Made by a program: the position numbers and the translations under genes | In this document: positions 10,746 through 57,708 of the stretch, one piece after another | Numbering within the stretch: the stretch's first letter is position 1 | Layout of the letters: each line of letters begins with the position of its first letter | Notes under the pieces: generated by a model | Databases searched by the model: none | What the model was told of the DNA's origin: nothing | The model's input: only the letters and a program-made list of their open reading frames with translations | Assembly (NCBI GenBank): GCA_023898465.1 | Contig: CP060223.1 | Span: forward strand, 512,001-576,000 | Length of the DNA stretch: 64,000 nt | DNA from: Candidatus Nomurabacteria bacterium | GTDB taxonomy: Bacteria > Patescibacteriota > Patescibacteriia > HK-STAS-PATE-3 | Direction of reading: 5' to 3'

Positions 10746-11528
10746 TTAAGGCCGGAGAGTACCGGAAAACATTTGCCAGGCTAGAGCTGATTTCGCCACC
10801 AGGGACAAAATCATATAGGCCTTTTCACCGTAGAGATAGTCCTGCCATTTCCCTATCTTCTTATACTGCAGGACCATGTTAATCGCGAAGATGTTAAAGG
10901 TGACAAAGATGGTGGCCACAATGAAATAAACAAAGGTAGGAATCTCCACTCCGGTCGACTGTACCGCGCCAATGAAGAAAGCAACAATGACCAGCCAGGG
11001 AATTAAGCCAGCCAAAACTCCTATCCAGTACGAAAGCCAATTCGTATGCTTGGTCGTCTGATTATGTACTTCCATCATCAAGCCCATGAGATTCATAATC
11101 GCATTCAAGGCAAACAGCGAAATGAGTAGCCAAAGATCGTACACACCACAAAGCATGGCAATAACTACAATCATAACTGACGAGGATAAGGCATACTCAG
11201 CCCAACGCAGCTTGTTGATGCCCTTTTTCAAATTCTCCTCATACCATTCCCGCAAAGGTCCGGCTAGAAGGAAATGCGCAAAAGCAGAAAGGAAGAGAAA
11301 GACCGCTACGGTGGGGCCTAAGCGTAAGTCAAACAAATGCTCAGGAAGTGGAGCTACACCAAAAACTGGATTATTTGGATCGATTTTCAGGTATGAAGTA
11401 ACAACTGGTAAAGATGAATTATTGCTTATCAAAACCATAATGACGCCTTGCACGAAGTGAAGGGCGGCCATTGACCAATTCCAGACTTGTAGTTTTTTTA
11501 ACTGCTCTTTTTGACTACGCATTTTCAT
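10746..11528 (-). CDS. Heliorhodopsin
   Basis: 260 aa, 7 TM. Close motif-level match (from memory) to heliorhodopsin 48C12: LQVWNWSMAALHFVQ vs LQNFNRIAGVFHLLQ; RWAEYALSSSVMIVVIAMLCG vs RWVEYSLSSSVMIVLIAQICG; GEKAYMILSLVAKSALAWQMFSGTL vs GERAYIVLSLVAKSALAWQIFSGTL. This includes the TM7 Schiff-base Lys (SLVAKS), the counterion Glu (RWAEY) and both conserved His. Confidence 0.85.
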   Translation of the reverse strand: MKMRSQKEQLKKLQVWNWSMAALHFVQGVIMVLISNNSSLPVVTSYLKIDPNNPVFGVAPLPEHLFDLRLGPTVAVFLFLSAFAHFLLAGPLREWYEENLKKGINKLRWAEYALSSSVMIVVIAMLCGVYDLWLLISLFALNAIMNLMGLMMEVHNQTTKHTNWLSYWIGVLAGLIPWLVIVAFFIGAVQSTGVEIPTFVYFIVATIFVTFNIFAINMVLQYKKIGKWQDYLYGEKAYMILSLVAKSALAWQMFSGTLRP

Positions 11529-13715: not shown

Positions 13716-14219
13716 TCATATCTTCCGAGCGTCATAGGCCCAGTGTAGCAGCGCCTGACGTTGCCGACGGCGACAAGCCATATCACGAGGCGCGCAATAC
13801 TTCTTGATTTGACCAACGTGACGACGAATAGCTTTCCAGCGCTTTATTTGACGCTCATCCTCCCTGGGAATACGACGGCCTGAATAATAGCGACAGTACC
13901 ATTGAAACCAACCTCGTGGATCCTCTGGATAAATCCAGCCTTTGCGCTGCCACTCTGCTAAAGATTGACTAGCGTCGACAGCAAAGAAATTGAGGTGGGG
14001 ATTATGGGTGGAGGATAATCGTGCGCCGCGAAACCATGAAGCGGGAAATTCTTTTTGACAATCATTGAGGTACTTACCCCCAAAAACACCTAGTCGCAGC
14101 ATCTGCGCAGGACTTAATTCAGGCGTAAACTCTGGAGCAAAGTTTCGGCCAGGCGCTTCTGTCCGGTAGTATGTGTAGGCCTGCTGAAAGCTATCGTTTA
14201 CTTTAACTTTTTTCTTCAT
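13716..14219 (-). CDS. Conserved hypothetical protein
   Basis: 168 aa from the ATG at 14217-14219. Trp/Arg-rich conserved-looking segments (PRGWFQWYCRYYSGRRIPREDERQIKRW). No confident family assignment. Confidence 0.45.
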   Translation of the reverse strand: MKKKVKVNDSFQQAYTYYRTEAPGRNFAPEFTPELSPAQMLRLGVFGGKYLNDCQKEFPASWFRGARLSSTHNPHLNFFAVDASQSLAEWQRKGWIYPEDPRGWFQWYCRYYSGRRIPREDERQIKRWKAIRRHVGQIKKYCAPRDMACRRRQRQALLHWAYDARKI

Positions 14220-14520
14220 AATCCCCTGTTGAAGCTTGCCGCACCCAGCGCTGCTCAATATAGAGCACTCGCCACCACCATCGCCCTAAGAAATACCCAC
14301 CAATCGCTCCAAGTAGTAACAAGCCAATTTGAATGTATGGTGGAAGCGCACATCCCCAGGTCCAATGTATAACCTGTCCATTTTTCTCAGCCCAGCTTAA
14401 ATACCACTGCTCAATTCCTAAATGTAACAGCAAACTTAACAGCACGCCGAACACAGTAGCGCTAATGAGATAAAGTGCATGTTTGAACGGGGTTGCTTTA
14501 AGTGGTCCGCGATGAAACAT
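14203..14520 (-). CDS. Hypothetical small membrane protein
   Basis: ATG at 14518-14520. Two hydrophobic helices. It lies 2 nt after the stop of the giant surface protein gene. Confidence 0.4.
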   Translation of the reverse strand: MFHRGPLKATPFKHALYLISATVFGVLLSLLLHLGIEQWYLSWAEKNGQVIHWTWGCALPPYIQIGLLLLGAIGGYFLGRWWWRVLYIEQRWVRQASTGDYEEKS

Positions 14521-14522
14521 AT

Positions 14523-17500
14523 TTAGAAAAGATTTAACCAACCAAAGAGGTCTTGCACTGATCCTAGGATTACCTGCACAACTGTTTGTTCTTGCTGTGG
14601 AGTAAGAATAGTCAGAGGCTCAGACACCGAGGTCTGTCCACTGGAATCCGTGCTCTCCACCTTGAACTGATACACCGAACCTGGCTCAAAACTTGTCAAA
14701 ACGACAACGTGCCGTTTCGTATAGTTTGTATCAAGTGGCGTGGCTTCGGTAATTGCTTCATCAGCACTGGCAACACCCTGTCGATAGTACACTCGACTAG
14801 TGGCTGGCTCATTTGTTAGCCAGCTGATGATGGTTTGGACTTTAGTATCACGGCCCGGGGAAAGGGCTGAGTCAGTTTGAATCTGCGAGATAAGCGGAGG
14901 CGCATTCTCATCGCCGGTCACAAAGGAGTCAAGCGTCTTGGAAACCGTATTGCCATCTGCATCAACACTTACCAACTCAATTGCGTAAGTCACTCCAGAC
15001 TCAAAACTATCTACAGTCACCTGATGAATAATGGTTTGCGTATCATCTCGAACACTGCTTAACTCATCGACCGCTTTGATGTTATTGCGATAAGGTATCA
15101 CCCGTACAGTGGCATCTGCATCACGAGTGGTGGTCCAGCGGAATACCGCTTCCTCGCTTGATATTTTTTCGACGGCATAATTTTGAATATCAAAAACCTG
15201 CGGATCAGTAGTGAAACTAAAGTCTGCACTTTGCGTTGTCTGGCTAATCTTTGTTCGACTACGCACTTGGTAATGATAGGTTGTATCAGGCTGTAAGTTG
15301 TAAACCGTAACTGAATGGGTCGTGCTATAGGTTTCCGCATCACCCACCACCTGAGTATACTGTTGTGCCAGAGCAAAGTCAGCATCTGAAGCGTAAGCTA
15401 CCAGGGCATTAGAGTCTTTATCAGTTCTCCATTGGATAGTGACTGAAGTTGGACCAACATCCACGCGAGGCTCTCCACTAATAAGCGGAGTAGGAATTAT
15501 TTTTGATAACTCCTCGATGAGTTGATACTGCTCTTCTAAACTTAGCTCTAAAATATCAATGCTAACATTGCCATAGAGATCATTCAGTAGATCAAGATTT
15601 TCTTCAAGGATATTCTTAATCTCATCAGGATTGTTTCTATCGATTGGTGCAGTGCCAGACGTAGTGAATGTTTTATCGCCGGTAATCGACGTGTTGCCGC
15701 TTGCATCAACGGAAATAACTCGATAATGATAAGTAGACCCACTGTTTAATTGTTGCAGAGTAAGGCTATGACTGGTGGCATAAGTCCAGTCACCATAAAT
15801 AGTTCCGTAAACTGTGGTAAGGCCAAATTGAATAAAGCTATTCGCTTCCTCACTTGTAGTCCAACGCACAGTGGCAGCGCTATCGCTAATGTTTACCACC
15901 TCGATGCCGGTTATGCTTGGATTTGTCTCATCCTTACTACCATCAATAGCATCTTGTTCACGTTGCTCTACATCTGATTCCTCAGACAGCATTTCTAAAG
16001 TGCTAAAGGATTTTTCTGTACTCGTTGTGCTATTACCTGAAGCATCAACTGACGAAACAGTGTAATAGTATGTCGTCTTAGGGCTGAGATTACTTAAGGT
16101 AACTAAATGGGTTAGGTTGAGACTTTCGTCTAAGCTCGTTGTAACCGTATAATTTCCCGAGCTTGTCCCATAACGCAATTGAGATGTTGCTCGCTCGTTA
16201 CTTAGCCAGGTAACTACTGCTCGAGTGTCAATGACCGGATCGGCCTGTATATTTGATAAGACTGGTGGCACTGTATCACTAGTCGTAACAAAGGAGTAAT
16301 ATTCACCACCGTTGTTATCAAAAGCTACGCCTGAGGTTACATAGTAGTAATACAGGGTACCGTTTGTCAGTCCTGATAACTTCACTAAATGATTCATCGT
16401 TGGTGGAGTATCCAGACCAACCTCAATGGCATCACTCATATCTGAATTCACTGAATAGAAGACGTGTGAATCAGACTCTACATCAGTTAACCAGCTTATA
16501 CTCGCTTCAGTATTACTCACCTCTTGCGTACTTACATTAGAAATTGCTGGACCACTTAAGGTTGTTACCGTATATCCATCACCTCCGTCAGAGTCAGTTG
16601 CCGAGTTCCCACCCGGATCCTCTGAACGAACTCTGAAATAGTACGTTGTCGAGGGATCGAGTCCGGTAAGTATGACTCGGTGAACACCAACACCTGCTTC
16701 ATTATCCATCAGAGTTGCAACACCGATAGTCGTACCAAAATCAGCTGGGGTATCTGAATATCCAATAGTAGAATCAGAGAGCTCATCTGTCTCCCAGGTA
16801 ATAGTGACCGTCTGAGTACCTATCTGACTGGTTGCTACATTTGAAATAGTTGGAGGCGTACTATCAGTACCTCCTTGTCCGTTGGCAGACTCTGAGACAA
16901 CCGCCGAGTAGTAAGAAAAATTTCCATCGCTATCTTCGCTTGATATCTTATACCAATAGCTTGTATCTGCTGTAACACTTTGATCGAGATAATAGTTAAT
17001 TGCTCTATCGCTTATGTGGCTAATCGTACTATAGCTCGTGCCGTCTGTTGAACGATACACCGTGTATTCGCTAAAGCCTGGGTCGGGCAGTGCTACTGCC
17101 TTCCAAGAAATAAAGAGTTGATAGGCATCAGCTTCTACATTACTAATATCACGAATAATCACTGTTGTTGGTGTTTCTGGTGTTACCGCTGATGCACTAC
17201 TGCTGGTATTTTTGTACGCATCACGGAAACGGACATAGACTGTATCTGGATCAGTAACCAAGGAAATAGTTGAGGAAGAGGCATAGCTTACCCACGTCGC
17301 GCCAACAAAGTCACTCCGCAAAGATACTTGCATTTCAAGGCTGCTATCATCAGAGCCGGAGAGATCGAGAGAAGCGGGGTCAGTACGTGCGTCCACCACA
17401 ATTGCCGGACTACCGAGGACTGGGTCTTTTACATCAAGAGTAAAGGCGCTTGTTTCATCGCTGGCTGTATTATTTGCTAATTCCCCATCATCAATAGTGA

Positions 17501-19943
17501 CTCTAATTAAGGTAGTGGTGCTATAGGTCCCATCGATTTGGGCTTTTGCGTTCCAGCTTGCACTATATTCAGTGTAATTAGTTTCATCGATGTCTTTAGG
17601 ATCGGTTGCCCCGGATGATAGCCCTGTGGTCACGTTAAACCAATCAAGGCCATTATTTAACGAATATTCAAAACTCGGGGTCACCTGTCCTGAGCCAGAG
17701 CTGCCATCTGGGTCACGAACTGAGTAAGTGATAAGCACGCTACCATCACTGCTTTGCTGGGTAGCTGTTGGTGCGCCCTCAAACTCAGGCGGTGCATTTA
17801 CCACATACACCATAGTTGCATCATACAGTGTTGGCGCCGCATAACCGTTTGAAGACTCTAGCCATACCTTATACTGCATCCACTGATCATTCGTACTATC
17901 GGTATGAGTGCTATTCACCGTCTCTCCGCCACTTGGATCAGTATAATAATCCCCTGTGCCGCTAGGACCAAGCCAGCTTGACCAAGTACCAGGAGATCCT
18001 GAGCTATCTGGAGCGGTCCGAATCTGAAATTTGATTTCAGTACCACTCGGTAGATTTTCTGTCCAGCGCATACCCCCCAGCGCATTTAATGCATCGGTGC
18101 TATCAAAAGCAGATGAGGTCAGTGTTTGTGATGATGGGTATTGTTGATAACCGATGCTAATGTCTTCAAAGTGCGGCGAAGCACTAGTATCACTCGTCGA
18201 CATACTCACTCGATATTGAATGTATTGCTCACCATCCGTGACGCAAGCGTCAGAACTAATATCATTCCCGCTCGTTAAATTACCGCATCCGGACCAATCA
18301 GGTGCTCCACTCATGCCTGAATCATTTGAGGTACGAGCCTGAACAGTTAAAGTGGTGCTTCCTGGAACGGTAGCATTCCAACTTAAGGTATCAAAAACAG
18401 TGTTTCCGTTTGTATTAAGTGCCGCTGAGGTGAAAGTGCCCGGTGTAAGATAGGTTGAAGGAATATTAATGGCTAATCCGCTTGCACCATCAGCCATATA
18501 GCTAGTGGTGCCTGATTGCAACACATGTTTTCCGAGCGCGGTAAGTGCGGTGCTGCTCACTTCTGATGGAGAGGTTGGATTGCTCACATCAAGCACTTTT
18601 AAGCTTGCGTCATCAATAATGTACAAGTCTGTGCCTACCGCCTCTACTGAACGCACATCAGTCAAACCTGTACTATAAGCCCCTATGCGAACCGGGACAG
18701 ATGGATTACTAATATCAATAATAGTGACACCAACCGAGGAGTCTGCGGTATATGCGTAGCTACCTACTATAGCTACATCATATCCTTCATCAAAGGCTTC
18801 AAAATCATACGAATATCCTCGTACACCGCTAATAGAACCCGGGGTTCCAATATTGTATATGTTTAAACTCGCAGCCTCTCCGTAATCATCGTACCCAACC
18901 CCATATAAGTAATCACCATCAGCAACCAGGCGATACGGTCTTGCTTGATATGAAACGTTTGACGCACTGAGACTTGGGTTTACCGGATCCGCCAAAGACA
19001 ACACATAAATGCGCATCACACGACAAAAACCTGAACAACCTCCTACTGCAAAACCGGCATACAAATATGATCCACGAAGGTATACGCTGTACACCTCTCC
19101 CGTGCTTGTATATTGCCCTACTAAGCTCGGCGCATTTTTGTTGCTAATATCCACTACACGAACATCACCGGTATAGTCAGCAAGATACGCATAGTTGCCT
19201 GAAACGGTAACGTCTCGCGCGTCGTTTGTGTCGACACTACCAAGGGGCTGAGGTGATAAAGGATTCGAAATATCAAAAATTTTCAAACCATCAACGCCAT
19301 CGGCAATATAGGCATAATTACCGTCGACAAAAACTCCTTTTGCGTCAGTGGTGTCGGAATAGGCAGTGCCACCACTTGATTGGGCCAACTCAACATAGGC
19401 CCCACTTCCCGATCCCGTGACTTGAGTGCTACTCGTGGTACCTGTACCAAAATCAGCATCACTCGTTTGCACGAGAGACTGCGACGTGGTAGTTAAGCTT
19501 AGTTCCGTGCCAATGTTAAGGTTTGCATCAGCTGCTGAGTACTCATTCCAACCTGTCTGATCACCTGGATGCTGAGCAGTATTTGCAGTTTGACCACCGC
19601 TCCAGTCTGTCTGCACCCAATAATAAGTGGCCGCTCGAGAGGAACCAATAGTGAGAGCCCAAAATGTCACGCTAATGAGTAAAACAGACGAAATAATTGC
19701 TCCTGCGTAACGTCGAGAACTTTTAAAAGGCTTTATTACCTTTTGCGCTACCTTTTTATTACGTTTTAAGGAAATGGCAAGTACCCATCCAAAATATAAT
19801 GGGATAAACGCGGTATAAGGACGCTGCTTCTTGCGTTTCGCGCGAAGAAGCGTTGTTTTTTTCTGTAAGCTGGCTGATAAAGAAAATATTCCGAAACCAG
19901 CTCTTTTTGGGGGGCTTTTTTTCGCCGACCTTTTTTTGGTCAC
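14523..19943 (-). CDS. Giant (1806 aa) cell-surface protein with LVIVD beta-propeller repeats and multiple Ig/FN3-like beta-sandwich repeats
   Basis: N-terminal basic region plus a TM anchor (AGAIISSVLLISVTFWALTIG). LVIVD-repeat signature (GNYAYIADGVDGLKIFDISNPLSPQPLGS ... VSGNYAYLADYTGDVRVVDISN). A long Ser/Thr-rich region with repeated roughly 90-aa beta-sandwich-like units (YTVYRSTDG..., TTYYFRVRSED..., TTYHYQVRS...). GTG start at 19943. Confidence 0.8.
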   Translation of the reverse strand: MTKKRSAKKSPPKRAGFGIFSLSASLQKKTTLLRAKRKKQRPYTAFIPLYFGWVLAISLKRNKKVAQKVIKPFKSSRRYAGAIISSVLLISVTFWALTIGSSRAATYYWVQTDWSGGQTANTAQHPGDQTGWNEYSAADANLNIGTELSLTTTSQSLVQTSDADFGTGTTSSTQVTGSGSGAYVELAQSSGGTAYSDTTDAKGVFVDGNYAYIADGVDGLKIFDISNPLSPQPLGSVDTNDARDVTVSGNYAYLADYTGDVRVVDISNKNAPSLVGQYTSTGEVYSVYLRGSYLYAGFAVGGCSGFCRVMRIYVLSLADPVNPSLSASNVSYQARPYRLVADGDYLYGVGYDDYGEAASLNIYNIGTPGSISGVRGYSYDFEAFDEGYDVAIVGSYAYTADSSVGVTIIDISNPSVPVRIGAYSTGLTDVRSVEAVGTDLYIIDDASLKVLDVSNPTSPSEVSSTALTALGKHVLQSGTTSYMADGASGLAINIPSTYLTPGTFTSAALNTNGNTVFDTLSWNATVPGSTTLTVQARTSNDSGMSGAPDWSGCGNLTSGNDISSDACVTDGEQYIQYRVSMSTSDTSASPHFEDISIGYQQYPSSQTLTSSAFDSTDALNALGGMRWTENLPSGTEIKFQIRTAPDSSGSPGTWSSWLGPSGTGDYYTDPSGGETVNSTHTDSTNDQWMQYKVWLESSNGYAAPTLYDATMVYVVNAPPEFEGAPTATQQSSDGSVLITYSVRDPDGSSGSGQVTPSFEYSLNNGLDWFNVTTGLSSGATDPKDIDETNYTEYSASWNAKAQIDGTYSTTTLIRVTIDDGELANNTASDETSAFTLDVKDPVLGSPAIVVDARTDPASLDLSGSDDSSLEMQVSLRSDFVGATWVSYASSSTISLVTDPDTVYVRFRDAYKNTSSSASAVTPETPTTVIIRDISNVEADAYQLFISWKAVALPDPGFSEYTVYRSTDGTSYSTISHISDRAINYYLDQSVTADTSYWYKISSEDSDGNFSYYSAVVSESANGQGGTDSTPPTISNVATSQIGTQTVTITWETDELSDSTIGYSDTPADFGTTIGVATLMDNEAGVGVHRVILTGLDPSTTYYFRVRSEDPGGNSATDSDGGDGYTVTTLSGPAISNVSTQEVSNTEASISWLTDVESDSHVFYSVNSDMSDAIEVGLDTPPTMNHLVKLSGLTNGTLYYYYVTSGVAFDNNGGEYYSFVTTSDTVPPVLSNIQADPVIDTRAVVTWLSNERATSQLRYGTSSGNYTVTTSLDESLNLTHLVTLSNLSPKTTYYYTVSSVDASGNSTTSTEKSFSTLEMLSEESDVEQREQDAIDGSKDETNPSITGIEVVNISDSAATVRWTTSEEANSFIQFGLTTVYGTIYGDWTYATSHSLTLQQLNSGSTYHYRVISVDASGNTSITGDKTFTTSGTAPIDRNNPDEIKNILEENLDLLNDLYGNVSIDILELSLEEQYQLIEELSKIIPTPLISGEPRVDVGPTSVTIQWRTDKDSNALVAYASDADFALAQQYTQVVGDAETYSTTHSVTVYNLQPDTTYHYQVRSRTKISQTTQSADFSFTTDPQVFDIQNYAVEKISSEEAVFRWTTTRDADATVRVIPYRNNIKAVDELSSVRDDTQTIIHQVTVDSFESGVTYAIELVSVDADGNTVSKTLDSFVTGDENAPPLISQIQTDSALSPGRDTKVQTIISWLTNEPATSRVYYRQGVASADEAITEATPLDTNYTKRHVVVLTSFEPGSVYQFKVESTDSSGQTSVSEPLTILTPQQEQTVVQVILGSVQDLFGWLNLF

Positions 19944-19988
19944 GACAAAATTATCCCACTTTTTCCACTATTGAGCAAGTGAAAACTA

Positions 19989-21188
19989 TTACTTATATCG
20001 CAGCGCTTCCAATGGATCCATATTTGCAGCGCGACGTGAAGGAAAAATACCAGTTAAGAAACCGATGAAGGTGGAAAAAACAATAATAACCACAACAAAC
20101 CACAGTGGTTCATAAAATAAATCTAAAGAGCGTCCACCTAAGCGCATCGCCAGGAAATTTAATCCAACATTAGTAATTTGACCAGCCAAAAATCCTAATA
20201 ATACGCCACCCAGACCACCGAGAAAGCCCATCAACATTGACTCGATTAAAAACATCTTACGAATATCCGCTCGCGTAACACCAACCGAGCGCATAATACC
20301 TATTTCATTAATACGTTCGAGTAAGGCAATTGTCATGGTATTAAACATACCAATTGCTGAAACAACTAAGGCAATTAATCCAAAGAGACCGAGGATGATT
20401 TGTAGCACGTTAAATATCTGATTTGCCTGGGAGATGATGTCGGATAATGAGGAAACAAGGTATCCACGAGCAATAATTTGATCACGAACAGTCGCCAGCG
20501 CATCCTGCTCAGCTACTTTCACCTTTACTAGGTCATAGGACTCAATGTCATCAATGCCCAACTCTTGAAGCGGCACATAGGCAAAACTTGATGTTTCATC
20601 TTCAATAATTCCCTGAACTGTGAAGCTCTGCTCCACCTCACGCACATCAACGGTTTCAAAACCCTGCTCATCAAGCTGTGCCACATATACGGTCATAGTC
20701 ACTTCTTGATGCAACATCTCGTCAGCACTCTTATTAAAGAGCTTAGCGGCAGCACTTGATAACACAATTGCCTGACTTGCCTCACTGCTAAATATTTCAC
20801 CTTGATCGACTTGCAAGCCATGTAGTCTGAAAAAATTTGGGTCTACTGCTTGTAAAAGGGAGTCACTGCTCAAGCCCTGGAAGTGGATCTGGCCGGAAAA
20901 GCTCTTCAAACGCGCAGTTTCTGTTACCTCTGGTAAATCCTCTAGATTCTTTAAGGATGCGTCATCCAACACAACCAAGCCGGAATCTCCAGGGGCAACA
21001 TCTAAGCTTAACAATGCATCGGCGGTGGTAATTTGGCTTAAAATAACTCTTTGTAAACCATAGCCTAGCGATACGAGGAAGAGCACTGCGCCAATACCGA
21101 TACCCACGCCTAAGATCGTTAAAAAGGTCCGCATTGGACGGGTAGTAAACATACGCGTCGAAAGTGAAAGGAGATCCGGAATACGCAT
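19989..21188 (-). CDS. ABC transporter permease, FtsX/MacB-like
   Basis: N-terminal TM helix, a large periplasmic domain and a C-terminal FtsX-type 3-TM bundle (GIMRSVGVTRADIRKMFLIESMLMG). ATG at 21186-21188, 2 nt after the ATPase stop. Confidence 0.85.
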   Translation of the reverse strand: MRIPDLLSLSTRMFTTRPMRTFLTILGVGIGIGAVLFLVSLGYGLQRVILSQITTADALLSLDVAPGDSGLVVLDDASLKNLEDLPEVTETARLKSFSGQIHFQGLSSDSLLQAVDPNFFRLHGLQVDQGEIFSSEASQAIVLSSAAAKLFNKSADEMLHQEVTMTVYVAQLDEQGFETVDVREVEQSFTVQGIIEDETSSFAYVPLQELGIDDIESYDLVKVKVAEQDALATVRDQIIARGYLVSSLSDIISQANQIFNVLQIILGLFGLIALVVSAIGMFNTMTIALLERINEIGIMRSVGVTRADIRKMFLIESMLMGFLGGLGGVLLGFLAGQITNVGLNFLAMRLGGRSLDLFYEPLWFVVVIIVFSTFIGFLTGIFPSRRAANMDPLEALRYK

Positions 21189-21190
21189 AC

Positions 21191-22537
21191 TTACTCGACC
21201 TGATACTTACCTAACATAATTAGTTCTAGACGGCGAGCTAATTTACGAGCTGTTTGTCTGTTATATCCTAAGCCGCCCTCATCCCACGGTAAATCAAATT
21301 GACGAAAAGCTTCTTTTTGATCAATAACACCCTGTAAACGATTTTGAAGTACTGTATTGAAACGACGCAGTTCATCCGCGCTCCTCATATGAATAGCAAA
21401 CACATCGAGGAGATAATGTCGAATTGTGTGCACTCGTTCTTCTTCGCTTGTAGCTTGCGCTTCGCCCTCTCTTTGCTGAAGTAGTTTAATTTCCTCGACA
21501 AGCTGGGCGATCTTTTCAGTCATCTTTTCTGCGGTGCGATGATCCAAGCCAAAGCCGCCGTCCTCAATATTGAGGTCAAGTAACTGTTCTAAACGCTGAT
21601 CCTCACGCAGCCCGCTCATCAACATGTGCTGCACTTGCTCCTCTAGCTTTGACAATTGAGGAAGTGTTAATCCTGTCAGCACCTCGGTAACAATCTCACG
21701 CGACTTATAGGGCAGAAGCAAATGTTCAATATGCTGAGGCTCTAAGGTGGTATATGATCGCAGGAGTAATTCGAGATTATGCGGCACAACGGGCGGCACC
21801 TCTTTTACCTCTTTCACGCCGGGATGAATAGCTCGGTTCACTTTCGTCTGAATGATCTGCCCATCCTTCATATAAAAAACCCGATGGGCTAAATGCAAAT
21901 GGGCCGGATTATGCGTGACGAGAATAATCGTCTTATTTCTTTTCTCATTTAGCTCATGAATCAAATCCATCACATCATTGGCTGACTTTGAATCAAGGTT
22001 TCCAACCGGCTCATCCGCAAGCACAATGTCGGGATTATTTACTAGAGCGCGACAAATAGCCACTCGTTGCTGCTGACCACCAGAAAGCTCTGTTGGCAAT
22101 TTTTCAGCCTGGGTAATCACGCCAAAGTGCTTGAGAAGCTCGTTAGCAAGCTTAGTTCGCTCGGCCACCGCAGTATGAATTGCCATTTGCGGCAAAAGTA
22201 CATTTTTGCGAACTGATAAGGTTGGTATCAAATAGAAGGCTTGAAAAATCATGCCAATCTTATGCTGGCGATACTCAGCAATCTCTCGCATGGTCAGATG
22301 AGCAATGTCTTTTTTATCTACTGAAATATTTCCATGCGTATGGGTTTCTAGGCCAGCAATTGAATAGAGTAAGGTAGACTTTCCACAACCCGAAGGGCCA
22401 AAGAAAATAATAAATTCACCTGGATAAATTTCCAGGTTAATACGCTGAAGTGCTTTCACTTCATTCTTGCGACCCATAAAATAGGTCACGTTAAGGTCTT
22501 TTACTTCAATAATTGGCTGTAGTACTTGCTTGCCCAC
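21191..22537 (-). CDS. ABC transporter ATP-binding protein (MacB/LolD-like) with an unusual roughly 220-aa C-terminal extension
   Basis: Walker A GPSGCGKST, signature LSGGQQQRVAICRAL, Walker B ILADEP. The C-terminal half has no recognisable domain but contains an internal repeat (EDGGFGLDHRTAEKMTEKIAQL / DEGGLGYNRQTARKLARRLELI). GTG start. Confidence 0.85.
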   Translation of the reverse strand: MGKQVLQPIIEVKDLNVTYFMGRKNEVKALQRINLEIYPGEFIIFFGPSGCGKSTLLYSIAGLETHTHGNISVDKKDIAHLTMREIAEYRQHKIGMIFQAFYLIPTLSVRKNVLLPQMAIHTAVAERTKLANELLKHFGVITQAEKLPTELSGGQQQRVAICRALVNNPDIVLADEPVGNLDSKSANDVMDLIHELNEKRNKTIILVTHNPAHLHLAHRVFYMKDGQIIQTKVNRAIHPGVKEVKEVPPVVPHNLELLLRSYTTLEPQHIEHLLLPYKSREIVTEVLTGLTLPQLSKLEEQVQHMLMSGLREDQRLEQLLDLNIEDGGFGLDHRTAEKMTEKIAQLVEEIKLLQQREGEAQATSEEERVHTIRHYLLDVFAIHMRSADELRRFNTVLQNRLQGVIDQKEAFRQFDLPWDEGGLGYNRQTARKLARRLELIMLGKYQVE

Positions 22538-32695: not shown

Positions 32696-34465
32696 TTATG
32701 TAAATTTGATAACCTGCCCAGGTTGAAGAGACTTACCTGATTGCGTCTGTGGCTGACTATGTTTCTCTTGTGCCTGAACAGACTTTGACTGCTCAGCTTG
32801 CTTCGGAGTATTTTTGGCTGGCTGACTCTTTTCCTGAGGTTGCTTCTTCTTAGGCTTCGCTGTGAATTGCACAGGACCTTTACTCAGCGCCTCGTGTAAG
32901 CTAATTTCTTTTGGTGGCTCAGGAGCTACTTCACGCAACTGCTCAGGCTCAGGTGCCGTTTGTGTAAAATTCGGTCGATCGTTTCTTCCCTGCTCTCGCT
33001 CATTGCGTGGACGGGAGCTGTTTTGATTACCTTGAGGATTTGGTTGACGATTTCGGTCATTCCCGCCTGATCGTTGTCGAGATCCGCCGCCTTGATTTTG
33101 ACGCGGTCCACTTCCCCCTCGACGATCATTTCCACCCCTATTACCGCCGCTACGATTTCCGCCACCCTGGGAACCCTGTCCGAGGAAGATTTCATCAACT
33201 CCAGTCCATCGGCGGATTTTATCTTCTACAATCTCTCGCTTCTTAGCATAGCGCTCACGTGACACCTCAATCACTTTTTGCCCATTACCGGTTGGACCGC
33301 TCACTGGCTCCAGAGTTGTAGCGGAAAAAGGCTCAGAAGCTACTCCATCAATCATTAAGCGGAGATAAATATCGTACTTGGTCAGGTTTACTAAATCAGT
33401 CTCAGTGAAGGTGGGATCAAACTCTTTAGCCAAAAACTCTGCATCAGCGGCACCAACACGGAAACACACGATCGATCCGACGTTGCCAAAAACAGCCGCG
33501 CGAACTTGCTCATCTAACTGCTCAATATACTGGTGAGCCATGATAAGATTTAAGCGATACTTACGCGCCTCTGACAAAATGTTGGCAAAGCTCTCAGTGG
33601 CAAAGTTTTGAAATTCGTCAACATAGAGGAAAAAATCTTTACGATCTTTTTCCGCAATGTCTACGCGACTCATGGCCGCCAACTGAATCTTGGTAATCAT
33701 CATACCACCCAGCAAAGCTGCATTATCTTCACCAATACGGCCTTTGGAAAGGTTCAGTAAGACAATCTTTTGCTCGTCCATCAATTGCCGCAAATCAAAA
33801 GTACTCTTCGGCTGGCCAATGATATTACGAATCATTGATGAGGAAAGAAATTGACCAATCTTGTTTTGGATAGGTGAAACAGCTTCGGTACGGAATTGGT
33901 TAGCGTATTGGCCGAATTCCTCATGCCAGAAAGCCTTCACAATAGGATCAGTTAGCTTCTCCACCACTTTTGATCGATAGTCGTTGTCGACGAGAATACG
34001 AGGAATACCCAAAAGTGTTGACCCAGGATACTCAATCAAGGAGAGAATACTATTGCGCAAAATGTATTCCAATCGAGGTCCCCATGAGTCGCTCCACATT
34101 TTTTTAAACACCGAAACAAGACCCGAGGCTACTAAGTGGCGGTGGGCAGGGTTTACACTTTCTAAGACGTTGAAGGCTACCGGATAATCTACATCAGCCG
34201 GATTAATATACACCACATCATTAATTCGATGTGAAGGAATGTAATCTAAAATCTTTTCCACAAAGTCACCGTGCGGATCAATCACAGCTAAGCCATGACC
34301 AGCTCGCACATCCTGGATCATCATATTTTCAAGCACCGTCGTCTTACCCATACCGGTCTTACCGATAAAGTACATGTGACGGCGTCGATCATCTATTCTA
34401 ATACCAAAGCGCCGCTGCTGATTGCGGAAATTCGTTTTAGCAAAAAAATTAATATCTTCACTCAT
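32696..34465 (-). CDS. VirD4/TraG/TraD-family type IV coupling-protein-like P-loop ATPase with a Gly/Arg/Gln-rich C-terminal tail
   Basis: Walker A GKTGMGKTT. Walker B plus TraG-D_C-like segment LYVDEFQNF...ARKYRLNLIMAHQYIEQL. The C-terminal roughly 170 aa are low complexity (GGNRSGGNRGGNDRRGGSGPRQNQGGG...). Confidence 0.7.
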   Translation of the reverse strand: MSEDINFFAKTNFRNQQRRFGIRIDDRRRHMYFIGKTGMGKTTVLENMMIQDVRAGHGLAVIDPHGDFVEKILDYIPSHRINDVVYINPADVDYPVAFNVLESVNPAHRHLVASGLVSVFKKMWSDSWGPRLEYILRNSILSLIEYPGSTLLGIPRILVDNDYRSKVVEKLTDPIVKAFWHEEFGQYANQFRTEAVSPIQNKIGQFLSSSMIRNIIGQPKSTFDLRQLMDEQKIVLLNLSKGRIGEDNAALLGGMMITKIQLAAMSRVDIAEKDRKDFFLYVDEFQNFATESFANILSEARKYRLNLIMAHQYIEQLDEQVRAAVFGNVGSIVCFRVGAADAEFLAKEFDPTFTETDLVNLTKYDIYLRLMIDGVASEPFSATTLEPVSGPTGNGQKVIEVSRERYAKKREIVEDKIRRWTGVDEIFLGQGSQGGGNRSGGNRGGNDRRGGSGPRQNQGGGSRQRSGGNDRNRQPNPQGNQNSSRPRNEREQGRNDRPNFTQTAPEPEQLREVAPEPPKEISLHEALSKGPVQFTAKPKKKQPQEKSQPAKNTPKQAEQSKSVQAQEKHSQPQTQSGKSLQPGQVIKFT

Positions 34466-37177: not shown

Positions 37178-38089
37178 TTAACGAAAGCGTCGCGCTCGCC
37201 AATTATGCCACTCAACCAATAACGTGCTGGCAATGAAAATTGAGGAGTAAGTTCCCACGATAATACCCGCAATCAGCGCTATCACAAACATACGAATTGA
37301 CTCTCCTCCCAGTACCGCCAGAGCAACTAATACAAACAATGTCGTCATCGAGGTATTAATAGAGCGCGACATGGTCTCATTAATACTCCGGTTAGCGATT
37401 TCTTCAAAAGGCTCATTATGATAACGCTGGATACCCTCACGAATACGATCAAAAACAACAATGGTATCGTGCACTGAGAATCCTAGCACCGTAAGTAAAG
37501 CTGTTACAAAAAGTGAATCAACCTCTGTGCCAAATATCTGACCAAAGAGCACAAAGAGACCTACGATAATAGAAATATCATGAATCAATGCAACAATCGC
37601 GCCAACGCCAAATACCCAACTGGGCACCGGTCCGCCACGAGAAATCTTACGGAAGGCCCAAGTGATATACGCGATGATACCTATGAGAACTAAAGCAATG
37701 GCTGAATACGCTTTCTTGCGCAACTCTTGACCAATACTCGGTCCAATCGCAGTAAATGAATCTTCACTCACCTGCTCTTCTTGTAAAGCGCTTAAGGCAT
37801 CTAGGACTGATTGGCGCTCGTCATTGCTTAAGGCGCGTGTTTTTAGGATGAGGCTTTTTTCGTTAGAAGGAACTGCTTGATAAGAACCCAGGTCTAGAGG
37901 ATTCAATGCGTCTTGTATCGTCGAAAGTTCTGGACGAAGTTCTGGGAAGCTTATCTCCAATCGAGAACCGCCAGTGAAATCAATACCAGGCTTCAAGCCC
38001 CAAATCAAAGCACCGACAATAGAGGCCACAACAAGTATCGCGGAAATGATAGTAAAATATTTTCGCTTTTGGATAATCTTTAGCGTCAT
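37178..38089 (-). CDS. secF: Protein translocase subunit SecF
   Basis: SecF-type N-terminus (IIQKRKYFTIISAILVVASIVG...GIDFTGG) and a 6-TM SecDF C-domain. Its ATG at 38087-38089 overlaps the secD TGA (ATGA). Confidence 0.85.
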   Translation of the reverse strand: MTLKIIQKRKYFTIISAILVVASIVGALIWGLKPGIDFTGGSRLEISFPELRPELSTIQDALNPLDLGSYQAVPSNEKSLILKTRALSNDERQSVLDALSALQEEQVSEDSFTAIGPSIGQELRKKAYSAIALVLIGIIAYITWAFRKISRGGPVPSWVFGVGAIVALIHDISIIVGLFVLFGQIFGTEVDSLFVTALLTVLGFSVHDTIVVFDRIREGIQRYHNEPFEEIANRSINETMSRSINTSMTTLFVLVALAVLGGESIRMFVIALIAGIIVGTYSSIFIASTLLVEWHNWRARRFR

Positions 38090-39750
38090 ACTTGTTCCTT
38101 CTTCCGTACTCCATACAGCCAGGCCACACTCACCCATCGTTGAGTGAGACGTAAGAATGTGCGCGTAACTACAATGGCTGAAAACATACTTACTAAAATA
38201 CCAATCGCTAAGGTAATCGCGAATCCTTTAATGATACTTGTACCAAACCAGGCCAAGATAAAAGTGGTAATTAAACTTGAAATGTTTGAATCGCGAATAG
38301 ACAACCAAGCGCGTCGGAAACCCTCTTCAATCGCTTGATTAAGTGGTCGACCTTCACGCAACTCTTCTTTCATGCGTTCAAAAATAAGCACGTTTGCGTC
38401 TACTGCCATTCCGATGGAAAGAATAAATCCAGCAATTCCAGCTAGAGTCAAAGTCACTGGCCAGAGAATAAAGATGGCAAAAACTACGGCGGAGTATACC
38501 CCTAAAGCCAAAACTGAGATAAGGCCAGGCAAGCGATAATAGAGAATCATAAAGAGCGCAACTAAGCCGAGCCCAATTATGCCAGCAACAAAACTAGACT
38601 GCACTGAACGCTCACCAAGGGTTGGTCCTACATTCTGTTGAGAAACAAGCGTAATTGGTACTGGCAGTGCACCAGCATTTAAATTACGAGCTAAGTCTCG
38701 CGCTTCTTGCAAGGTAAAATCACCTGAGATAACCGCTTCTCCACTCGTGATAGCCTGCTGAACTGTTGGTAAGCTTAATGGGAAGCCATCTAAATAAATA
38801 GCCACCACCTTGCCAACATTGCGCTCAGTAATTTCTTTAAAAAGCTGTGTACCCTCGCTATTGAAATTCAAACTAATCTCTGGAGTATTGGTAGTTTGAT
38901 CAAACACGACTGAAGCTCGTTCCAAATCCTTACCCGATAGCCCAGTTGCCACAAAATCGGTTGAGGGTTCAGTTGACTGCAGTATAAAAAGAATATGACT
39001 ACCTTGAACTTCTCGCACATCTTGCCCATCTTGATTCGCTGTACGCTCGTCGGTCTTCTTAATAATATGCAGACCGAATTGCGATTCAACCAGCTCCGGA
39101 TACACCTGCCCGACCGCTAAATCACCGAAGAGAACGTCATCGAATTCTTGCACGAAAGTGCCTTGTTGCGCAAAACCGAGATCGCCCCCATTATCTTTAC
39201 TACCCGGATCTTCGGAATAGAGTTGGGCCAATTGAGCAAAATCAGCGTCAGGTTGAAGCGCTTGTGCTAATACGTCTTGTGCTTTTTTTCGCACTTCTTC
39301 GTTTTGCGCCTCTATGGCTGCTGGATCCTCTGGTGTGGTCTCAATCTGTTCACGAAATTCTAAGGTTGGAGTTTGACCAATCTGCGCGATTGCCTGGTTC
39401 ACGTCAGTGACACCTGGTAATTCAATCGAGACTCGCCATTGATCGCCAGCCTTTTGCGTTTGGACAACTGGCTCGGATACACCAAAGGCATTCACTCGAC
39501 GCTCAATAACATCGCGAACACCTTCTACAGCGTCTTGCGCCTCAGCTGGAGCTACTTGCGATAGATCAGCGTCATAGAGCAATGACACGCCGCCTTGCAA
39601 ATCCAAACCCAGCTGAACAGGTAAATCAATAGTCCAGTCTACTGGCCCTACGTGAATCCGGATTGGTTTTTGATAGTCAATGGTACCAGCTAGCAGGGTG
39701 AGCAATAGAATCCCGGCAAAACTGAGCCAAACTTTCTTCCGTACGGTCAT
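38086..39750 (-). CDS. secD: Protein translocase subunit SecD
   Basis: GLDLQGG motif, a periplasmic P1 domain and a C-terminal 6-TM domain. 554 aa. Confidence 0.9.
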   Translation of the reverse strand: MTVRKKVWLSFAGILLLTLLAGTIDYQKPIRIHVGPVDWTIDLPVQLGLDLQGGVSLLYDADLSQVAPAEAQDAVEGVRDVIERRVNAFGVSEPVVQTQKAGDQWRVSIELPGVTDVNQAIAQIGQTPTLEFREQIETTPEDPAAIEAQNEEVRKKAQDVLAQALQPDADFAQLAQLYSEDPGSKDNGGDLGFAQQGTFVQEFDDVLFGDLAVGQVYPELVESQFGLHIIKKTDERTANQDGQDVREVQGSHILFILQSTEPSTDFVATGLSGKDLERASVVFDQTTNTPEISLNFNSEGTQLFKEITERNVGKVVAIYLDGFPLSLPTVQQAITSGEAVISGDFTLQEARDLARNLNAGALPVPITLVSQQNVGPTLGERSVQSSFVAGIIGLGLVALFMILYYRLPGLISVLALGVYSAVVFAIFILWPVTLTLAGIAGFILSIGMAVDANVLIFERMKEELREGRPLNQAIEEGFRRAWLSIRDSNISSLITTFILAWFGTSIIKGFAITLAIGILVSMFSAIVVTRTFLRLTQRWVSVAWLYGVRKKEQV

Positions 39751-39870: not shown

Positions 39871-41292
39871 TTAATCCTGCACTACCACTTTGGTTCCTAT
39901 TGGCGCCCACTCATACACCCACTTTGCATTCGATTCTGAGATATTAATGCAGCCATGGCTCATAGGATGACCAAAGTTATTATGCCAATACGCGGTGTGC
40001 AGATAGTAATGTGGAGTGAAATTAAGATTCCACTTCACGTCCTTAATATCGTAGTTGTCCGGATGCTGCGGGCCGTAGGTCCACTCATAGTCCATGACCG
40101 GCACTTTGCGATAAATCGCGAACTCACCTTTTGGTGAAGGATAGCGCGCTACTCCGCTGGAGATGAGGAAGCTATTTTGGAGGACTCCATCGTCATAGGC
40201 ATATAAGCGCTGCTCAGAAAGATCCACCACAATGCGTTTCCCTACCTGATCCACACTTGCAACGACCAAGCGATTTGGCCCAGTCACAATTTCGTCTTCA
40301 CCATCTGCATCAATATCGCCAGCGGCAATGAAGAGGCCGCCACGGAAATCTCCACTATAGGCAAAGAAGTCGCGCAGGTATTCGCCCTGCGCAGTGAAGG
40401 CACGTACGTGTGGTCCACCGTTTCCATTGGCTGCTACGAGTAATTCATCGCGACCATCAAAATCTAAATCCGCTCCAGCAATATTTACCCCACCACGGAA
40501 CGCTAGCGGAAAGGCGATGAACTCACTAATGATAGGGCGATCTGGTGCTACGTCATATACCTTCACCCAAGCATGGCCAAAGCGATGCAGCGCGAAAAGA
40601 ATTTCGTCATCACCATCACCATTCACATCCGCAGTAGCCACACTTAACCCGCCGCGTTCGTATTTTGCAAATGGCCAAAAGTCCAGACCTTGATATTCAC
40701 CATCAAGTGAAAAAAGTCTAGCTTGGTTTCCGCTATCAAAACCCGAAGCAGTAATAATCATACCAGTGCCGCTACCATTGAGATCGCCACAAGCAACAGT
40801 AACTCCGCCACGAAAAGCGCTGTCGTAGGCCATGAAGCTAGAAAGCTCCTCGCCTTCCATGGTGTAGACCTTCACATTTGGTCCGCCGCCGCGACGTGGA
40901 CCGGTCACGATTTCTGCAATACCGTCATTATTCAAATCACAACTCGCCACGTAAATACCTTTTCGGAACGCATCCATATACGCATAGAAGCTGCTGAGCT
41001 TTACTCCCTCGCTCGTGAAGACTTGCACGTTTGGTCCGCCGCCTGGACCCGCTCCCACAATTATTTCATCTTTACCATCTCCGTTTACATCTCCAGTCGC
41101 TACGCTTGCTCCACCTTGAAAGGCTTCAGTGAAACCGTAAAACTGATTTACCTGACTAAAGTGCGTATCAAAAATTCTTATCTCAGGTGAAAGAGAGAGC
41201 TGCACTGCCTGAGCGCCTGAAACAAAAAACACCCCGAAGAGGAGCGTCGTTATGAGTAAGGTATACTTCTGAGCTAGAAAATACTTTTGCAT
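39871..41292 (-). CDS. FG-GAP repeat protein with C-terminal L,D-transpeptidase (YkuD) catalytic domain
   Basis: Repeated D-x-N-x-D-G-x-D-E-I FG-GAP/VCBS calcium-binding motifs (ATGDVNGDGKDEIIVGAG, CDLNNDGIAEIV, ADVNGDGDDEILF, GDIDADGEDEIV). The C-terminus carries an SHGCINI active-site motif. Start at the ATG at 41290-41292 (MQKYF...) with a signal peptide. Confidence 0.75.
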   Translation of the reverse strand: MQKYFLAQKYTLLITTLLFGVFFVSGAQAVQLSLSPEIRIFDTHFSQVNQFYGFTEAFQGGASVATGDVNGDGKDEIIVGAGPGGGPNVQVFTSEGVKLSSFYAYMDAFRKGIYVASCDLNNDGIAEIVTGPRRGGGPNVKVYTMEGEELSSFMAYDSAFRGGVTVACGDLNGSGTGMIITASGFDSGNQARLFSLDGEYQGLDFWPFAKYERGGLSVATADVNGDGDDEILFALHRFGHAWVKVYDVAPDRPIISEFIAFPLAFRGGVNIAGADLDFDGRDELLVAANGNGGPHVRAFTAQGEYLRDFFAYSGDFRGGLFIAAGDIDADGEDEIVTGPNRLVVASVDQVGKRIVVDLSEQRLYAYDDGVLQNSFLISSGVARYPSPKGEFAIYRKVPVMDYEWTYGPQHPDNYDIKDVKWNLNFTPHYYLHTAYWHNNFGHPMSHGCINISESNAKWVYEWAPIGTKVVVQD

Positions 41293-41298
41293 TTGTTT

Positions 41299-41424
41299 GT
41301 CTTTCCAAAAGAAAAGGGAGAACGGGTGAGGAATCAATTTGGACTCGCTAGAAAGCTAGTAAACCCGAAGTGATTCCTCACCCGATAAGACTCTTTTTGT
41401 GTCTCTTTTTGTTTTTGGAAAGAG
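41299..41424. repeat. Long nested inverted repeat (about 125 bp) in the divergent ldt/sodN intergenic region
   Basis: Perfect 14-bp arms CGGGTGAGGAATCA (41323-41336) / TGATTCCTCACCCG (41371-41384) around a 34-nt centre containing GCTAGAAAGCTAG. Outer arms GTCTTTCCAAAAG (41299-41311) / CTTTTGGAAAGAG (41413-41424) extend the structure. Confidence 0.5.
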
Positions 41425-52494: not shown

Positions 52495-52575
52495 GACTCT
52501 TGTACTCCATTGCTTGGCTGTGTGGCCATCCTTGGTTTCTCGGGCGCCAAAAACGCCCTCCTGTTGCAAACGGAG

Positions 52576-55789: not shown

Positions 55790-55808
55790 GGAATACTGCA
55801 AAAATTAA

Positions 55809-57050
55809 TTATTCGTAGCGAAGTGCGTCGATTGGATTTAGTCGGGCGGCTCGGATAGCCGGAGCAACTCCGAATATCACGCCAATAAGTACCGAGAAGG
55901 CTATTCCGATAAAGGCGATCCTGATGTCCAGGAATGTGCTCAAGCCCAGCTTGGCTTGAATAAATATCCCGGCAATGATCGACAAGCCTATACCTATCAA
56001 TGCACCAACAATGCTTAATATTACCGATTCTATGAGAAATTGTAAAAGGATGTTTGCTCCTGAAGCGCCAATCGCCTTTCGTAGGCCGATTTCCTTTGTT
56101 CGCTCAGTCACTGACACGAGCATAATATTCATAATGCCAATTCCTCCGACGATCAGTGAAATAGCAGCAATGCCCGCTACCGCGCCAGTGAGAATGCCGA
56201 AAAACTGATCAAACAAATCAAGAATATCGTCTGCGGTTAAGACTGAAAAATCTTTCACTCCTTTGTGATTGGCAAGTAGCTTTTCTTGAATAGCATCAAC
56301 ACCAGGTTGCACTTGCTCGGTTTTATCAAAGCGAGCAACAATTCGGAAAATGTTTAAGGTATCAAGCACGTCCTCAGCTGTAGAGACCGGAATGAGAATT
56401 GATTCATTGAAGTTAGGAACCTTGCCGAGTACGCCATTAGACTCACCGCTAAACAATTCTGAAGAGCTCGCGTAAGTACCAACAATCGTAAATTTCTCGT
56501 CGAGAAGCATAAAATCCTGACCTAGTGCGCCATCTGGGAAATACATATCCGCAAAATCACTTCCCACGATCGCCACCCTAGCGCTGTCAGTCATTTCACT
56601 ACTAGAAAAACCTCGACCATTCACGAAGTTAAACTCAAGCAAGGTATCAATGTCCGAAGTCGTTGCCATAATCAAGGGTTGGAATGGCGTATCCTCATTA
56701 ATACTTACCGCTCCAGGAACGATCATCATGGGTGCTACAACACTCGCCCCATCAATCGTACGTATGCTGGCAACATCCTCGAGACTAAGGGAAGAGAGAC
56801 TGGCAAAACTGGTAATCGCTCCCCCGCCTTCCTCTCCACCGAGGTCACCTGAAATGACTGCGGCAATATTTGCACCAAAATCAGAAATTGAGCTTTCAAA
56901 TTCCTTCTGCACACCGGTACCGATGCTTACCAGAGTTACCACCGAAAAAACACCGATGACTATGCCAAGCATGGTTAAGAAGCTACGTAAGCGACTGTTC
57001 CAGATAGCACTTAGGGCTAATCGTAAATTCTCCCAAATGAGATTAAGCAT
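55809..57050 (-). CDS. ABC transporter permease, FtsX/MacB-like
   Basis: N-terminal TM, a periplasmic domain and a C-terminal FtsX bundle (GLRKAIGASGANILLQFLIESV). ATG at 57048-57050. Confidence 0.85.
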   Translation of the reverse strand: MLNLIWENLRLALSAIWNSRLRSFLTMLGIVIGVFSVVTLVSIGTGVQKEFESSISDFGANIAAVISGDLGGEEGGGAITSFASLSSLSLEDVASIRTIDGASVVAPMMIVPGAVSINEDTPFQPLIMATTSDIDTLLEFNFVNGRGFSSSEMTDSARVAIVGSDFADMYFPDGALGQDFMLLDEKFTIVGTYASSSELFSGESNGVLGKVPNFNESILIPVSTAEDVLDTLNIFRIVARFDKTEQVQPGVDAIQEKLLANHKGVKDFSVLTADDILDLFDQFFGILTGAVAGIAAISLIVGGIGIMNIMLVSVTERTKEIGLRKAIGASGANILLQFLIESVILSIVGALIGIGLSIIAGIFIQAKLGLSTFLDIRIAFIGIAFSVLIGVIFGVAPAIRAARLNPIDALRYE

Positions 57051-57708
57051 CGCGCACCTCCCCATCACGGATAAGTATTCTACGCTGAGCGTAGGCCGCC
57101 ACTTCATCATCATGAGTAACCATTACAAGGGTTCGGCCCTGTGCATGCAGCTTGGCAAAGAGGTTCATAATATCTACACCGGTTTTAGAATCCAAATTAC
57201 CAGTTGGCTCATCGGCAAAAATAACTTTAGGGTCATTCACAAGCGCCCGCGCAATCGCAACGCGTTGCATCTCTCCGCCTGATAACTGACGCGGTGCATG
57301 ATGCGCCCGATCAACCAAGCCAACCTGCTCGAGGATCTCCATTACCTTTTCTTTGCGATTCTTTTTCCGACTATAGGTTAAAGGTAGCTCCACATTTTTC
57401 ATCGCACTATAGCGAGGTAAGAGATTAAAACTCTGGAATACGAAACCGATTTCCTCTAAGCGAATCTTGGCTAAGGCGTTTGAGCCTAAGCCCTGGATTA
57501 AACGTCCATCAAAATGGTATTCCCCACTGCTTGGTAAATCCAAACAACCTAGGATATTTAAAAGCGACGACTTACCTGACCCAGAGGGTCCCATAATGGC
57601 GACAAACTCCCCTTTGGCGACCGATAGATTTACACTGTGCAGAACCTCAAGTGAGTGATCACCTAACTGATACGCCTTAACTACATTTTTTAACTCAAGT
57701 AGTGCCAT
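57043..57708 (-). CDS. ABC transporter ATP-binding protein (MacB/LolD-like)
   Basis: Walker [10 protein letters not shown], signature [15 protein letters not shown], Walker [12 protein letters not shown]. 221 aa. Confidence 0.9.

Follow-up and report, generated by a model that had tools for sequence, protein, structure and literature searches.

The 64,000-nt window analysed here (contig CP060223.1 of a Candidatus Nomurabacteria bacterium, positions 512,001 to 576,000 of the forward strand) contains, on its minus strand, three consecutive genes encoding a long ATP-binding cassette (ABC) ATPase, a MacB-type permease, and a giant surface protein (hereafter the giant; Table 1). Sequence comparisons indicate that these genes make up a predicted envelope module, which to date is known from Patescibacteria (the candidate phyla radiation) alone. 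Each component is a member of a known superfamily; what is new is a domain of the ATPase and the conserved partnership of the ATPase-permease pair with a giant anchored protein. We suggest, with about an even chance of being right, that the ABC complex works on the anchored giant by mechanical means, through extraction, assembly or conformational switching. An earlier note on this DNA had described the gene order ATPase-permease-giant, the lengths of the ATPase and the giant, the GTG start of the ATPase, and the gaps of 2 nt (ATPase to permease) and 45 nt (permease to giant), all of which are borne out by the coordinates of the predicted open reading frames (ORFs).

The sequence of the ATPase reveals a canonical nucleotide-binding domain (NBD) followed by a long C-terminal extension, with the boundary near residue 237. 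The Pfam model ABC_tran spans residues 30-178 only (120.7 bits; cut-off 25). Walker A (GPSGCGKST), Q99, LSGGQ, D175-E176, and H209 are invariant in 45 homologs; with a Walker A motif, Q-loop, signature, Walker B glutamate, and H-loop, the protein belongs to the ABC ATPase superfamily (PF00005). The nearest solved relatives of the NBD are Spr0694 (5xu1_A, E = 5e-53), BceA, MJ0796, the MacB NBD, and YtrE, and no curated NCBIfam equivalog threshold (LolD, DevA, MacB, FtsE) is reached. The ATPase has no transmembrane (TM) segment by hydropathy and is identical to the NCBI entry 'MAG: ABC transporter ATP-binding protein [Candidatus Nomurabacteria bacterium]'.

The C-terminal extension comprises 211 aa (residues 238-448), in which the earlier note had recognised no domain. 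Searches of sequence and of fold bear this out. In particular, no Pfam match is better than E = 0.076, the NCBIfam models end at about residues 229-259 of the ATPase and none covers the extension, no sequence match to the PDB was obtained with either a single sequence or a profile, and fold comparison of the extension model gave no structural match. The extension is nonetheless conserved from end to end: among full-length relatives, the best 120 are 48-56% identical to the query over 96-100% of its length, and these are named Kerfeld-, Falkow-, Magasanik-, Campbellbacteria or Parcubacteria. An exhaustive phmmer search with the extension alone as query identified 196 representative clusters that carry it, in nearly all of them at approximately residues 240-445 of a protein of approximately 445 aa. 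A word-indexed search for homologs of the extension by itself gave no matches, which, because phmmer gave 196 clusters, we attribute to a failure of sensitivity. Distant family members with a taxon name are all Patescibacteria, and the extension thus far appears to be a domain specific to a Patescibacterial ATPase family. In ten of ten atypically long family members ABC_tran precedes the extension, and Pfam detects no other informative domain. Domain fusion was considered as an explanation of the extension and rejected: the longer relatives contain only ABC_tran, with one weak YqeY match (P0155). The ATPase of locus L111, which has a weak YqeY-like match, is 603 aa long; its extension ends at residue 445, and the extra sequence follows on the C-terminal side.

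The extension is internally duplicated. The earlier note had quoted two similar peptides, and both are present (Table 1). Comparison of one half of the extension with the other by BLASTP, using the ATPase of the window alone, gave no alignment; comparison of unit 1 with unit 2 by hhalign, using a 45-sequence family alignment, gave a probability of 97.4% and an E-value of 1.4e-11 over 33 columns, and the duplication is therefore real and not due to chance. A confident AlphaFold2 model from an extension-only alignment (predicted local distance difference test, pLDDT, 85.9; predicted template modelling score, pTM, 0.73) is all-helical and consists of two four-helix units, each with a conserved core made up of a short and a long helix together with a Gly-rich loop (GGxG); a model of the full-length ATPase agrees with it. 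The two units differ in charge, with a median isoelectric point (pI) of 5.2 for unit 1 (acidic) and 9.65 for unit 2 (basic).

The permease follows the long ATPase in all 27 loci in which the downstream side is visible. It matches MacB_PCD (E = 3.7e-25, 89.9 bits; cut-off 27) and FtsX (E = 2.4e-20, 73.2 bits; cut-off 25.5), and hydropathy places TM segments at residues 23-41, 261-279, 313-331, and 364-382, with an extracytoplasmic domain of approximately 220 aa between TM1 and TM2. These features define it as a type VII (MacB/FtsX-fold) permease; its nearest solved relatives are YtrF, MacB, Spr0695, LolC, and LolF.

Five characterised systems were considered as identities for the pair and rejected. 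For the MacB exporter (NF007826), only 187.5 and 98.6 bits are reached where the cut-off is 966, the ATPase and permease are separate polypeptides, and there is no neighbouring HlyD or membrane-fusion protein (MFP) gene. For LolCDE, the scores are 201.5 against 307.75 bits (LolD) and 71 against 362.45 bits (lolCE). For FtsEX, they are 177.9 against 264.85 bits (FtsE) and 48.2 against 225 bits (FtsX_Gpos), and the extracytoplasmic domain is of the MacB_PCD type. For the BceAB type, the permease has four TM helices, not 10, and no kinase or regulator gene is among the neighbours. For type I secretion (HlyB type), there is no ABC_membrane match and the ATPase lacks a TM segment. We take the organism of the window to be monoderm and, to our knowledge, a monoderm has no outer-membrane lipoprotein pathway.

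The giant contains four LVIVD stretches and at least six Pur_ac_phosph_N/fn3 stretches by Pfam. The earlier note had called it an LVIVD/Ig-repeat protein; the LVIVD assignment stands, and the repeats are fn3-like, not generic Ig, because the Pfam matches are to Pur_ac_phosph_N and fn3. Hydropathy and charge reveal an N-terminal signal-anchor. Specifically, residues 1-80 contain 24 Lys or Arg and no Asp or Glu, a single TM helix follows, and the ectodomain of approximately 1700 residues beyond the helix has a pI of 4.05. The combination of a basic N-terminus, a single TM helix, and an acidic ectodomain therefore points to an N-in, C-out, signal-anchored surface protein, probably inserted by Sec through its own N-terminal signal-anchor.

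Orthologs of the giant share the TM helix, a subsequent 'AATYxWxQTDWSGG' segment, and a C-terminal tail with the core 'TILTPxQxESVFQVIMxNxExxFGW'. Positions T, L, P, V, I, and F-G-W of the tail are invariant, and the core is conserved in 11 of 11 aligned orthologs; the N-terminal IPLYFGW motif is present in some lineages only. The family keeps 35-44% identity across classes, which for an adhesin is an unusual degree of conservation. In L027 (5550-10369), the closest relative, the 'giant' has only 737 aa and retains the TM anchor, fn3 units, and tail without the LVIVD propeller, indicating that the head domain is exchangeable; some other orthologs bear FG-GAP in place of the LVIVD head (L109). 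There are, in addition, secreted paralogs of approximately 645 aa (including L056 8426-10366, L063, L077, L081, L085, L088, and L098) that have a classical signal peptide and match residues ~1128-1806 of the giant, including the conserved tail. None of the 11 paralogs with adequate downstream flank has an ABC pair nearby. Since the tail is shared with these non-linked paralogs, the element specific to the ABC pair is the TM-anchored long form, not the tail.

The evidence for a partnership is gene linkage across related genomes, which the earlier note had put forward as a prediction. We assembled 22 GTDB species loci seeded on the extension, using a narrower extension alignment (A3) since the broad alignment (A2) was too divergent. 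A further 4 loci came from two close relatives of full length (three of these loci are near-identical and were counted once), and 5 more from distant members of the family. An ortholog of the giant directly adjoins the ATPase-permease pair in 15 of the 26 informative distinct loci, including loci in which the extension of the ATPase is only ~25-30% identical. The adjacent orthologs are colinear and match to their final residues; they are TM-anchored, fn3-rich proteins of 1100-2750 aa. Two gene orders occur: giant-ATPase-permease in 11 of the 15 linked loci, and ATPase-permease-giant, as in the window, in 4. The spacing from giant to ATPase lies between -11 and 167 nt (a 4-nt overlap in both L107 and L109), such that stop and start codons overlap in some linked loci. 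Clustering of all flanking ORFs revealed no other family common to more than 11 of 86 loci. With two gene orders and no other shared neighbour, the triad therefore persists while its surroundings change.

The reverse test gave a concordant result. Among 80 metagenome loci seeded on the last 120 residues of the giant, the long-ABC pair is adjacent to 21 of 32 long giants (at least 900 aa), and in 8 of the 11 exceptions either the contig edge cuts the locus or the upstream sequence is too short to rule out a pair on that side. The predicted link between ABC pair and giant is thus found in related genomes from both directions.

Several observations weigh against a dedicated partnership. The pair occurs without an adjacent giant in 11 of the 26 informative loci, where it adjoins housekeeping genes. 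Specifically, it lies directly after secY inside the ribosomal spc operon, by secY/adk, in L111 (8576-13047), directly before secD/secF in L108 (10001-15296), and before nusB-rnc-pilT in about 10 loci. For some long giants (L051 and L065), no pair lies in the 4 kb upstream or in the 5-10 kb downstream. None of the giant's conserved cytoplasmic motifs, LPLYFGW included, tracks with the linkage, and a scan for promoters and terminators yielded sites no more frequently than in shuffled sequence.

The giant-less loci among housekeeping genes therefore suggest that the pair may have a more general role. In the corresponding alternative, the pair is a general housekeeping envelope system, either an FtsEX-like hydrolase regulator or a membrane-protein or lipid helper, and the giant is merely co-located or co-regulated. 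A distribution of the pair wider than that of the linkage, approximately 50% identity across Nomura-, Kerfeld-, Falkow-, Magasanik-, and Campbellbacteria, and locations in the spc operon after secY, next to secDF, and next to ftsZ (L109 3393-14314, in which the full triad is followed by ftsZ) agree with this explanation. Against it, one orthologous giant family stays adjacent in both gene orders when no other neighbour is shared, stop and start codons overlap in some loci, and the curated FtsE and FtsX thresholds are missed by the scores given above. On balance we consider it somewhat unlikely.

That the pair serves for resistance to, or efflux of, antimicrobial peptides or toxins, as an ordinary MacB/YknYZ/BceAB-like pump, is quite unlikely. 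Some homologs are named 'ABC-type antimicrobial peptide transport system, ATPase component', and Spr0694 and BceA are the best solved relatives of the NBD; but the permease has 4 TM helices compared with 10 in BceB, no membrane-fusion protein, two-component system or bacteriocin gene is nearby, and the pair has the character of a conserved core gene, bears a cytoplasmic domain specific to its family, and is syntenic with the giant. Least likely is a dedicated, type I-like secretion system that exports the giant through its C-terminal tail, which would suit the conservation of the tail core (...V..I...FGW) in 11 of 11 aligned orthologs and the general precedent of the giant adhesins LapA and SiiE, exported by adjacent ABC systems, but is contradicted by a 4-TM MacB/FtsX fold in place of the 6-TM HlyB type with its ABC_membrane domain, by the giant's own N-terminal signal-anchor, and by the ~645-aa paralogs, in which the same tail goes with a classical signal peptide and, in all 11 with adequate downstream flank, with no pair nearby.

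Characterised MacB/FtsX-fold permeases transmit ATP-driven movement to an extracytoplasmic domain and do not translocate a substrate across the membrane (PMC7668044, PMC10694151, PMC11627006). Because permeases of this fold are not protein channels and the giant has its own signal-anchor, mechanical action on the giant is favoured over export. The ATPase and the 4-TM permease would form a type VII ABC complex, in which ATP hydrolysis in the cytoplasm would move the extracytoplasmic domain and would not open a channel. The giant, as the putative working partner, would insert N-in, C-out by its own signal-anchor and display a variable head, here the LVIVD propeller, on an fn3-like stalk. The complex may then extract or release the anchor of the giant for envelope assembly, in a Lol-like manner, or, alternatively, switch its conformation, in an FtsEX-like manner. 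The duplicated four-helix tail of the ATPase, located in the cytoplasm, would be a platform that gates ATPase activity; its most likely role, by analogy to the domains at the C-termini of MalK and MetN, is in dimerisation or regulation. A physical complex between the ABC pair and the giant is putative and has gene linkage as its basis. The earlier note had proposed export, anchoring or quality control of the adjacent surface proteins. Export is the least likely of these, given the 4-TM permease and the signal-anchor; anchoring, assembly or quality control of the giant by the pair is possible.

A more far-reaching version of this proposal is an ATP-powered surface machine, in which a MacB-fold mechanotransducer, gated by the ATPase tail, actuates, releases or resets a giant anchored adhesin or envelope fibre and thereby controls how episymbiotic Patescibacteria attach to their hosts. 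We regard this version as speculative and unlikely; if true, it would be a role so far undescribed for type VII ABC systems.

The features of the locus are collected in Table 1.

Table 1. Predicted genes, domains and motifs of the ATPase-permease-giant locus, in coordinates of the window
Feature	Position	Strand	Basis or remark
Long ABC ATPase, NBD plus C-terminal extension	21191..22537	-	GTG start; 448 aa plus stop; ABC_tran E = 9e-35
NBD, residues 1-237	21827..22537	-	Pfam, NCBIfam, PDB relatives
C-terminal extension, residues 238-448, all-helical, family-specific	21194..21826	-	
Repeat unit 1, residues 262-362, four helices and Gly-rich loop	21452..21754	-	hhalign
Duplicated motif EDQRLEQLLDLNIEDGGFGLDHRTAEKMTEKIA in repeat unit 1	21506-21604	-	
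Repeat unit 2, residues 363-446	21200..21451	-	hhalign; pLDDT 91-96 in full-length model
Duplicated motif DQKEAFRQFDLPWDEGGLGYNRQTARKLARRLE in repeat unit 2	21224-21322	-	
MacB/FtsX-fold (type VII) ABC permease, 399 aa	19989..21188	-	ATG start; Pfam, hydropathy
Giant surface protein, 1806 aa	14523..19943	-	GTG start; LVIVD E = 3.5e-36, Pur_ac_phosph_N E = 1.5e-42
Giant N-terminus, basic, with IPLYFGW motif	19647..19943	-	Hydropathy, charge, ortholog alignment
Single TM helix of giant, residues 81-99	19647-19703	-	Hydropathy
Giant C-terminal tail EPLTILTPQQEQTVVQVILGSVQDLFGWLNLF, several positions invariant across orthologs	14526..14621	-	Ortholog alignments
Possible accessory gene, 105 aa, two hydrophobic segments	14203..14520	-	Begins 2 nt past the giant stop

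Upstream of the ATPase, at a distance of 60 nt, lies a gene for an MnmA-type tRNA-modification enzyme (thiouridylase). Downstream of the giant are the 105-aa membrane ORF, a 180-aa ORF with no domain, and a major facilitator superfamily (MFS) transporter gene. The 105-aa ORF has a homolog at the same position solely in the closest relative (L027 10374-10688, E = 1e-27), and it lies outside the conserved core. A heliorhodopsin gene (260 aa; Pfam E = 2e-98) is located 3 kb downstream of the giant, at 10746-11528 (-).

The window contains a second MacB-like pair, comprising an ATPase at 57043..57708 (221 aa, a plain NBD without extension) and a permease at 55809..57113 (434 aa, MacB_PCD + FtsX). 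The earlier note had observed that this pair is followed by three secreted or membrane-anchored proteins and had taken the two modules for a recurring architecture. The first part is correct: the three downstream ORFs have hydrophobic N-termini, and no Pfam family matches them. The second part is not supported: the second ATPase lacks the extension, and the one neighbour for which homologs were sought, the 449-aa protein (54452-55801, -), which has a basic N-terminus and one TM helix, is an orphan with no homolog but itself among 5.8 billion clustered proteins, and no conservation of the second module can therefore be demonstrated.

Some other genes of the window, all on the minus strand, are of note. 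At 38086-39750 lies a SecD-like protein into which a parvulin-type peptidyl-prolyl isomerase (PPIase; Rotamase) domain is inserted, separating the N-terminal P1 segment of SecD from the P1 head; such a fusion of foldase and translocon accessory is unusual. The gene at 39871-41337 encodes FG-GAP repeats and a YkuD L,D-transpeptidase domain in one protein, and that at 32696-34465 a VirD4/TrwB-like type IV coupling protein; near these two genes, the stretch at 26-32 kb has a GC content of 50-53%, compared with ~45% elsewhere. A 165-aa ORF at 52072-52569, far longer than typical CsrA, has a CsrA domain at residues 26-77.

Patescibacteria account for a large part of the diversity of bacteria; most are thought to be host-attached, and how their surface is built and controlled is little understood. 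The link between ABC pair and giant is a concrete candidate for a function in envelope assembly or host attachment in this group. In Vampirococcus and Strigamonas, proteins of very large size that are targeted to the membrane and carry fn3, integrin-like or propeller domains have been reported (PMC8080830, PMC13059738); Southlakia has adhesins that are essential (PMC10633639). The giant resembles these surface proteins of Vampirococcus and Strigamonas, which are implicated in host attachment, in its very large size, membrane targeting, and fn3 and propeller domains. Term searches of the three papers turned up neither a linked ABC pair nor this orthologous giant family. Within an incomplete coverage of the literature on patescibacterial surface proteins and giant genes, no description of the module was found, which is absence of evidence only.

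The module is similar to LapA-LapEBC and SiiE-SiiCDF in that the gene for a giant, repeat-rich surface protein adjoins an ABC system. Those systems comprise an HlyB-type exporter, an MFP, and an outer-membrane channel in a diderm, and their substrates lack an N-terminal signal; here, in contrast, the permease has a MacB fold, the giant is signal-anchored, and the organism is presumed monoderm.

MalK, MetN, and ModC have an extra cytoplasmic domain after the NBD. The ATPase of the window is similar to them in this respect, and a role of its tail in dimerisation or regulation is plausible; however, the domains of MalK, MetN, and ModC are beta-rich (TOBE or NIL/ACT), whereas this tail is all-helical, duplicated, and without a structural match. 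As a new cytoplasmic domain of an ABC ATPase, it merits a family entry and a structure.

The closest parallels are with MacB, LolCDE, FtsEX, YtrEF, and Spr0694-0695. We know of no report of a duplicated helical tail in these families. The module has in common with them an NBD of the MJ0796/LolD class, separate or fused, and with type VII systems in general a 4-TM permease with a large extracytoplasmic domain between TM1 and TM2 (MacB_PCD + FtsX C-terminal domain), such that mechanotransmission would be the expected mechanism (PMC7668044, PMC11627006). It differs from type VII systems in the 211-aa duplicated helical tail of the ATPase, present in no Pfam model or PDB chain. It differs from MacB, Lol, and FtsEX in that no MFP/TolC, LolA or EnvC/PcsB-type partner gene is present and the conserved neighbour is instead the giant, which would add a giant anchored protein to the partners of type VII systems, so far lipoproteins, hydrolase activators, and small molecules.

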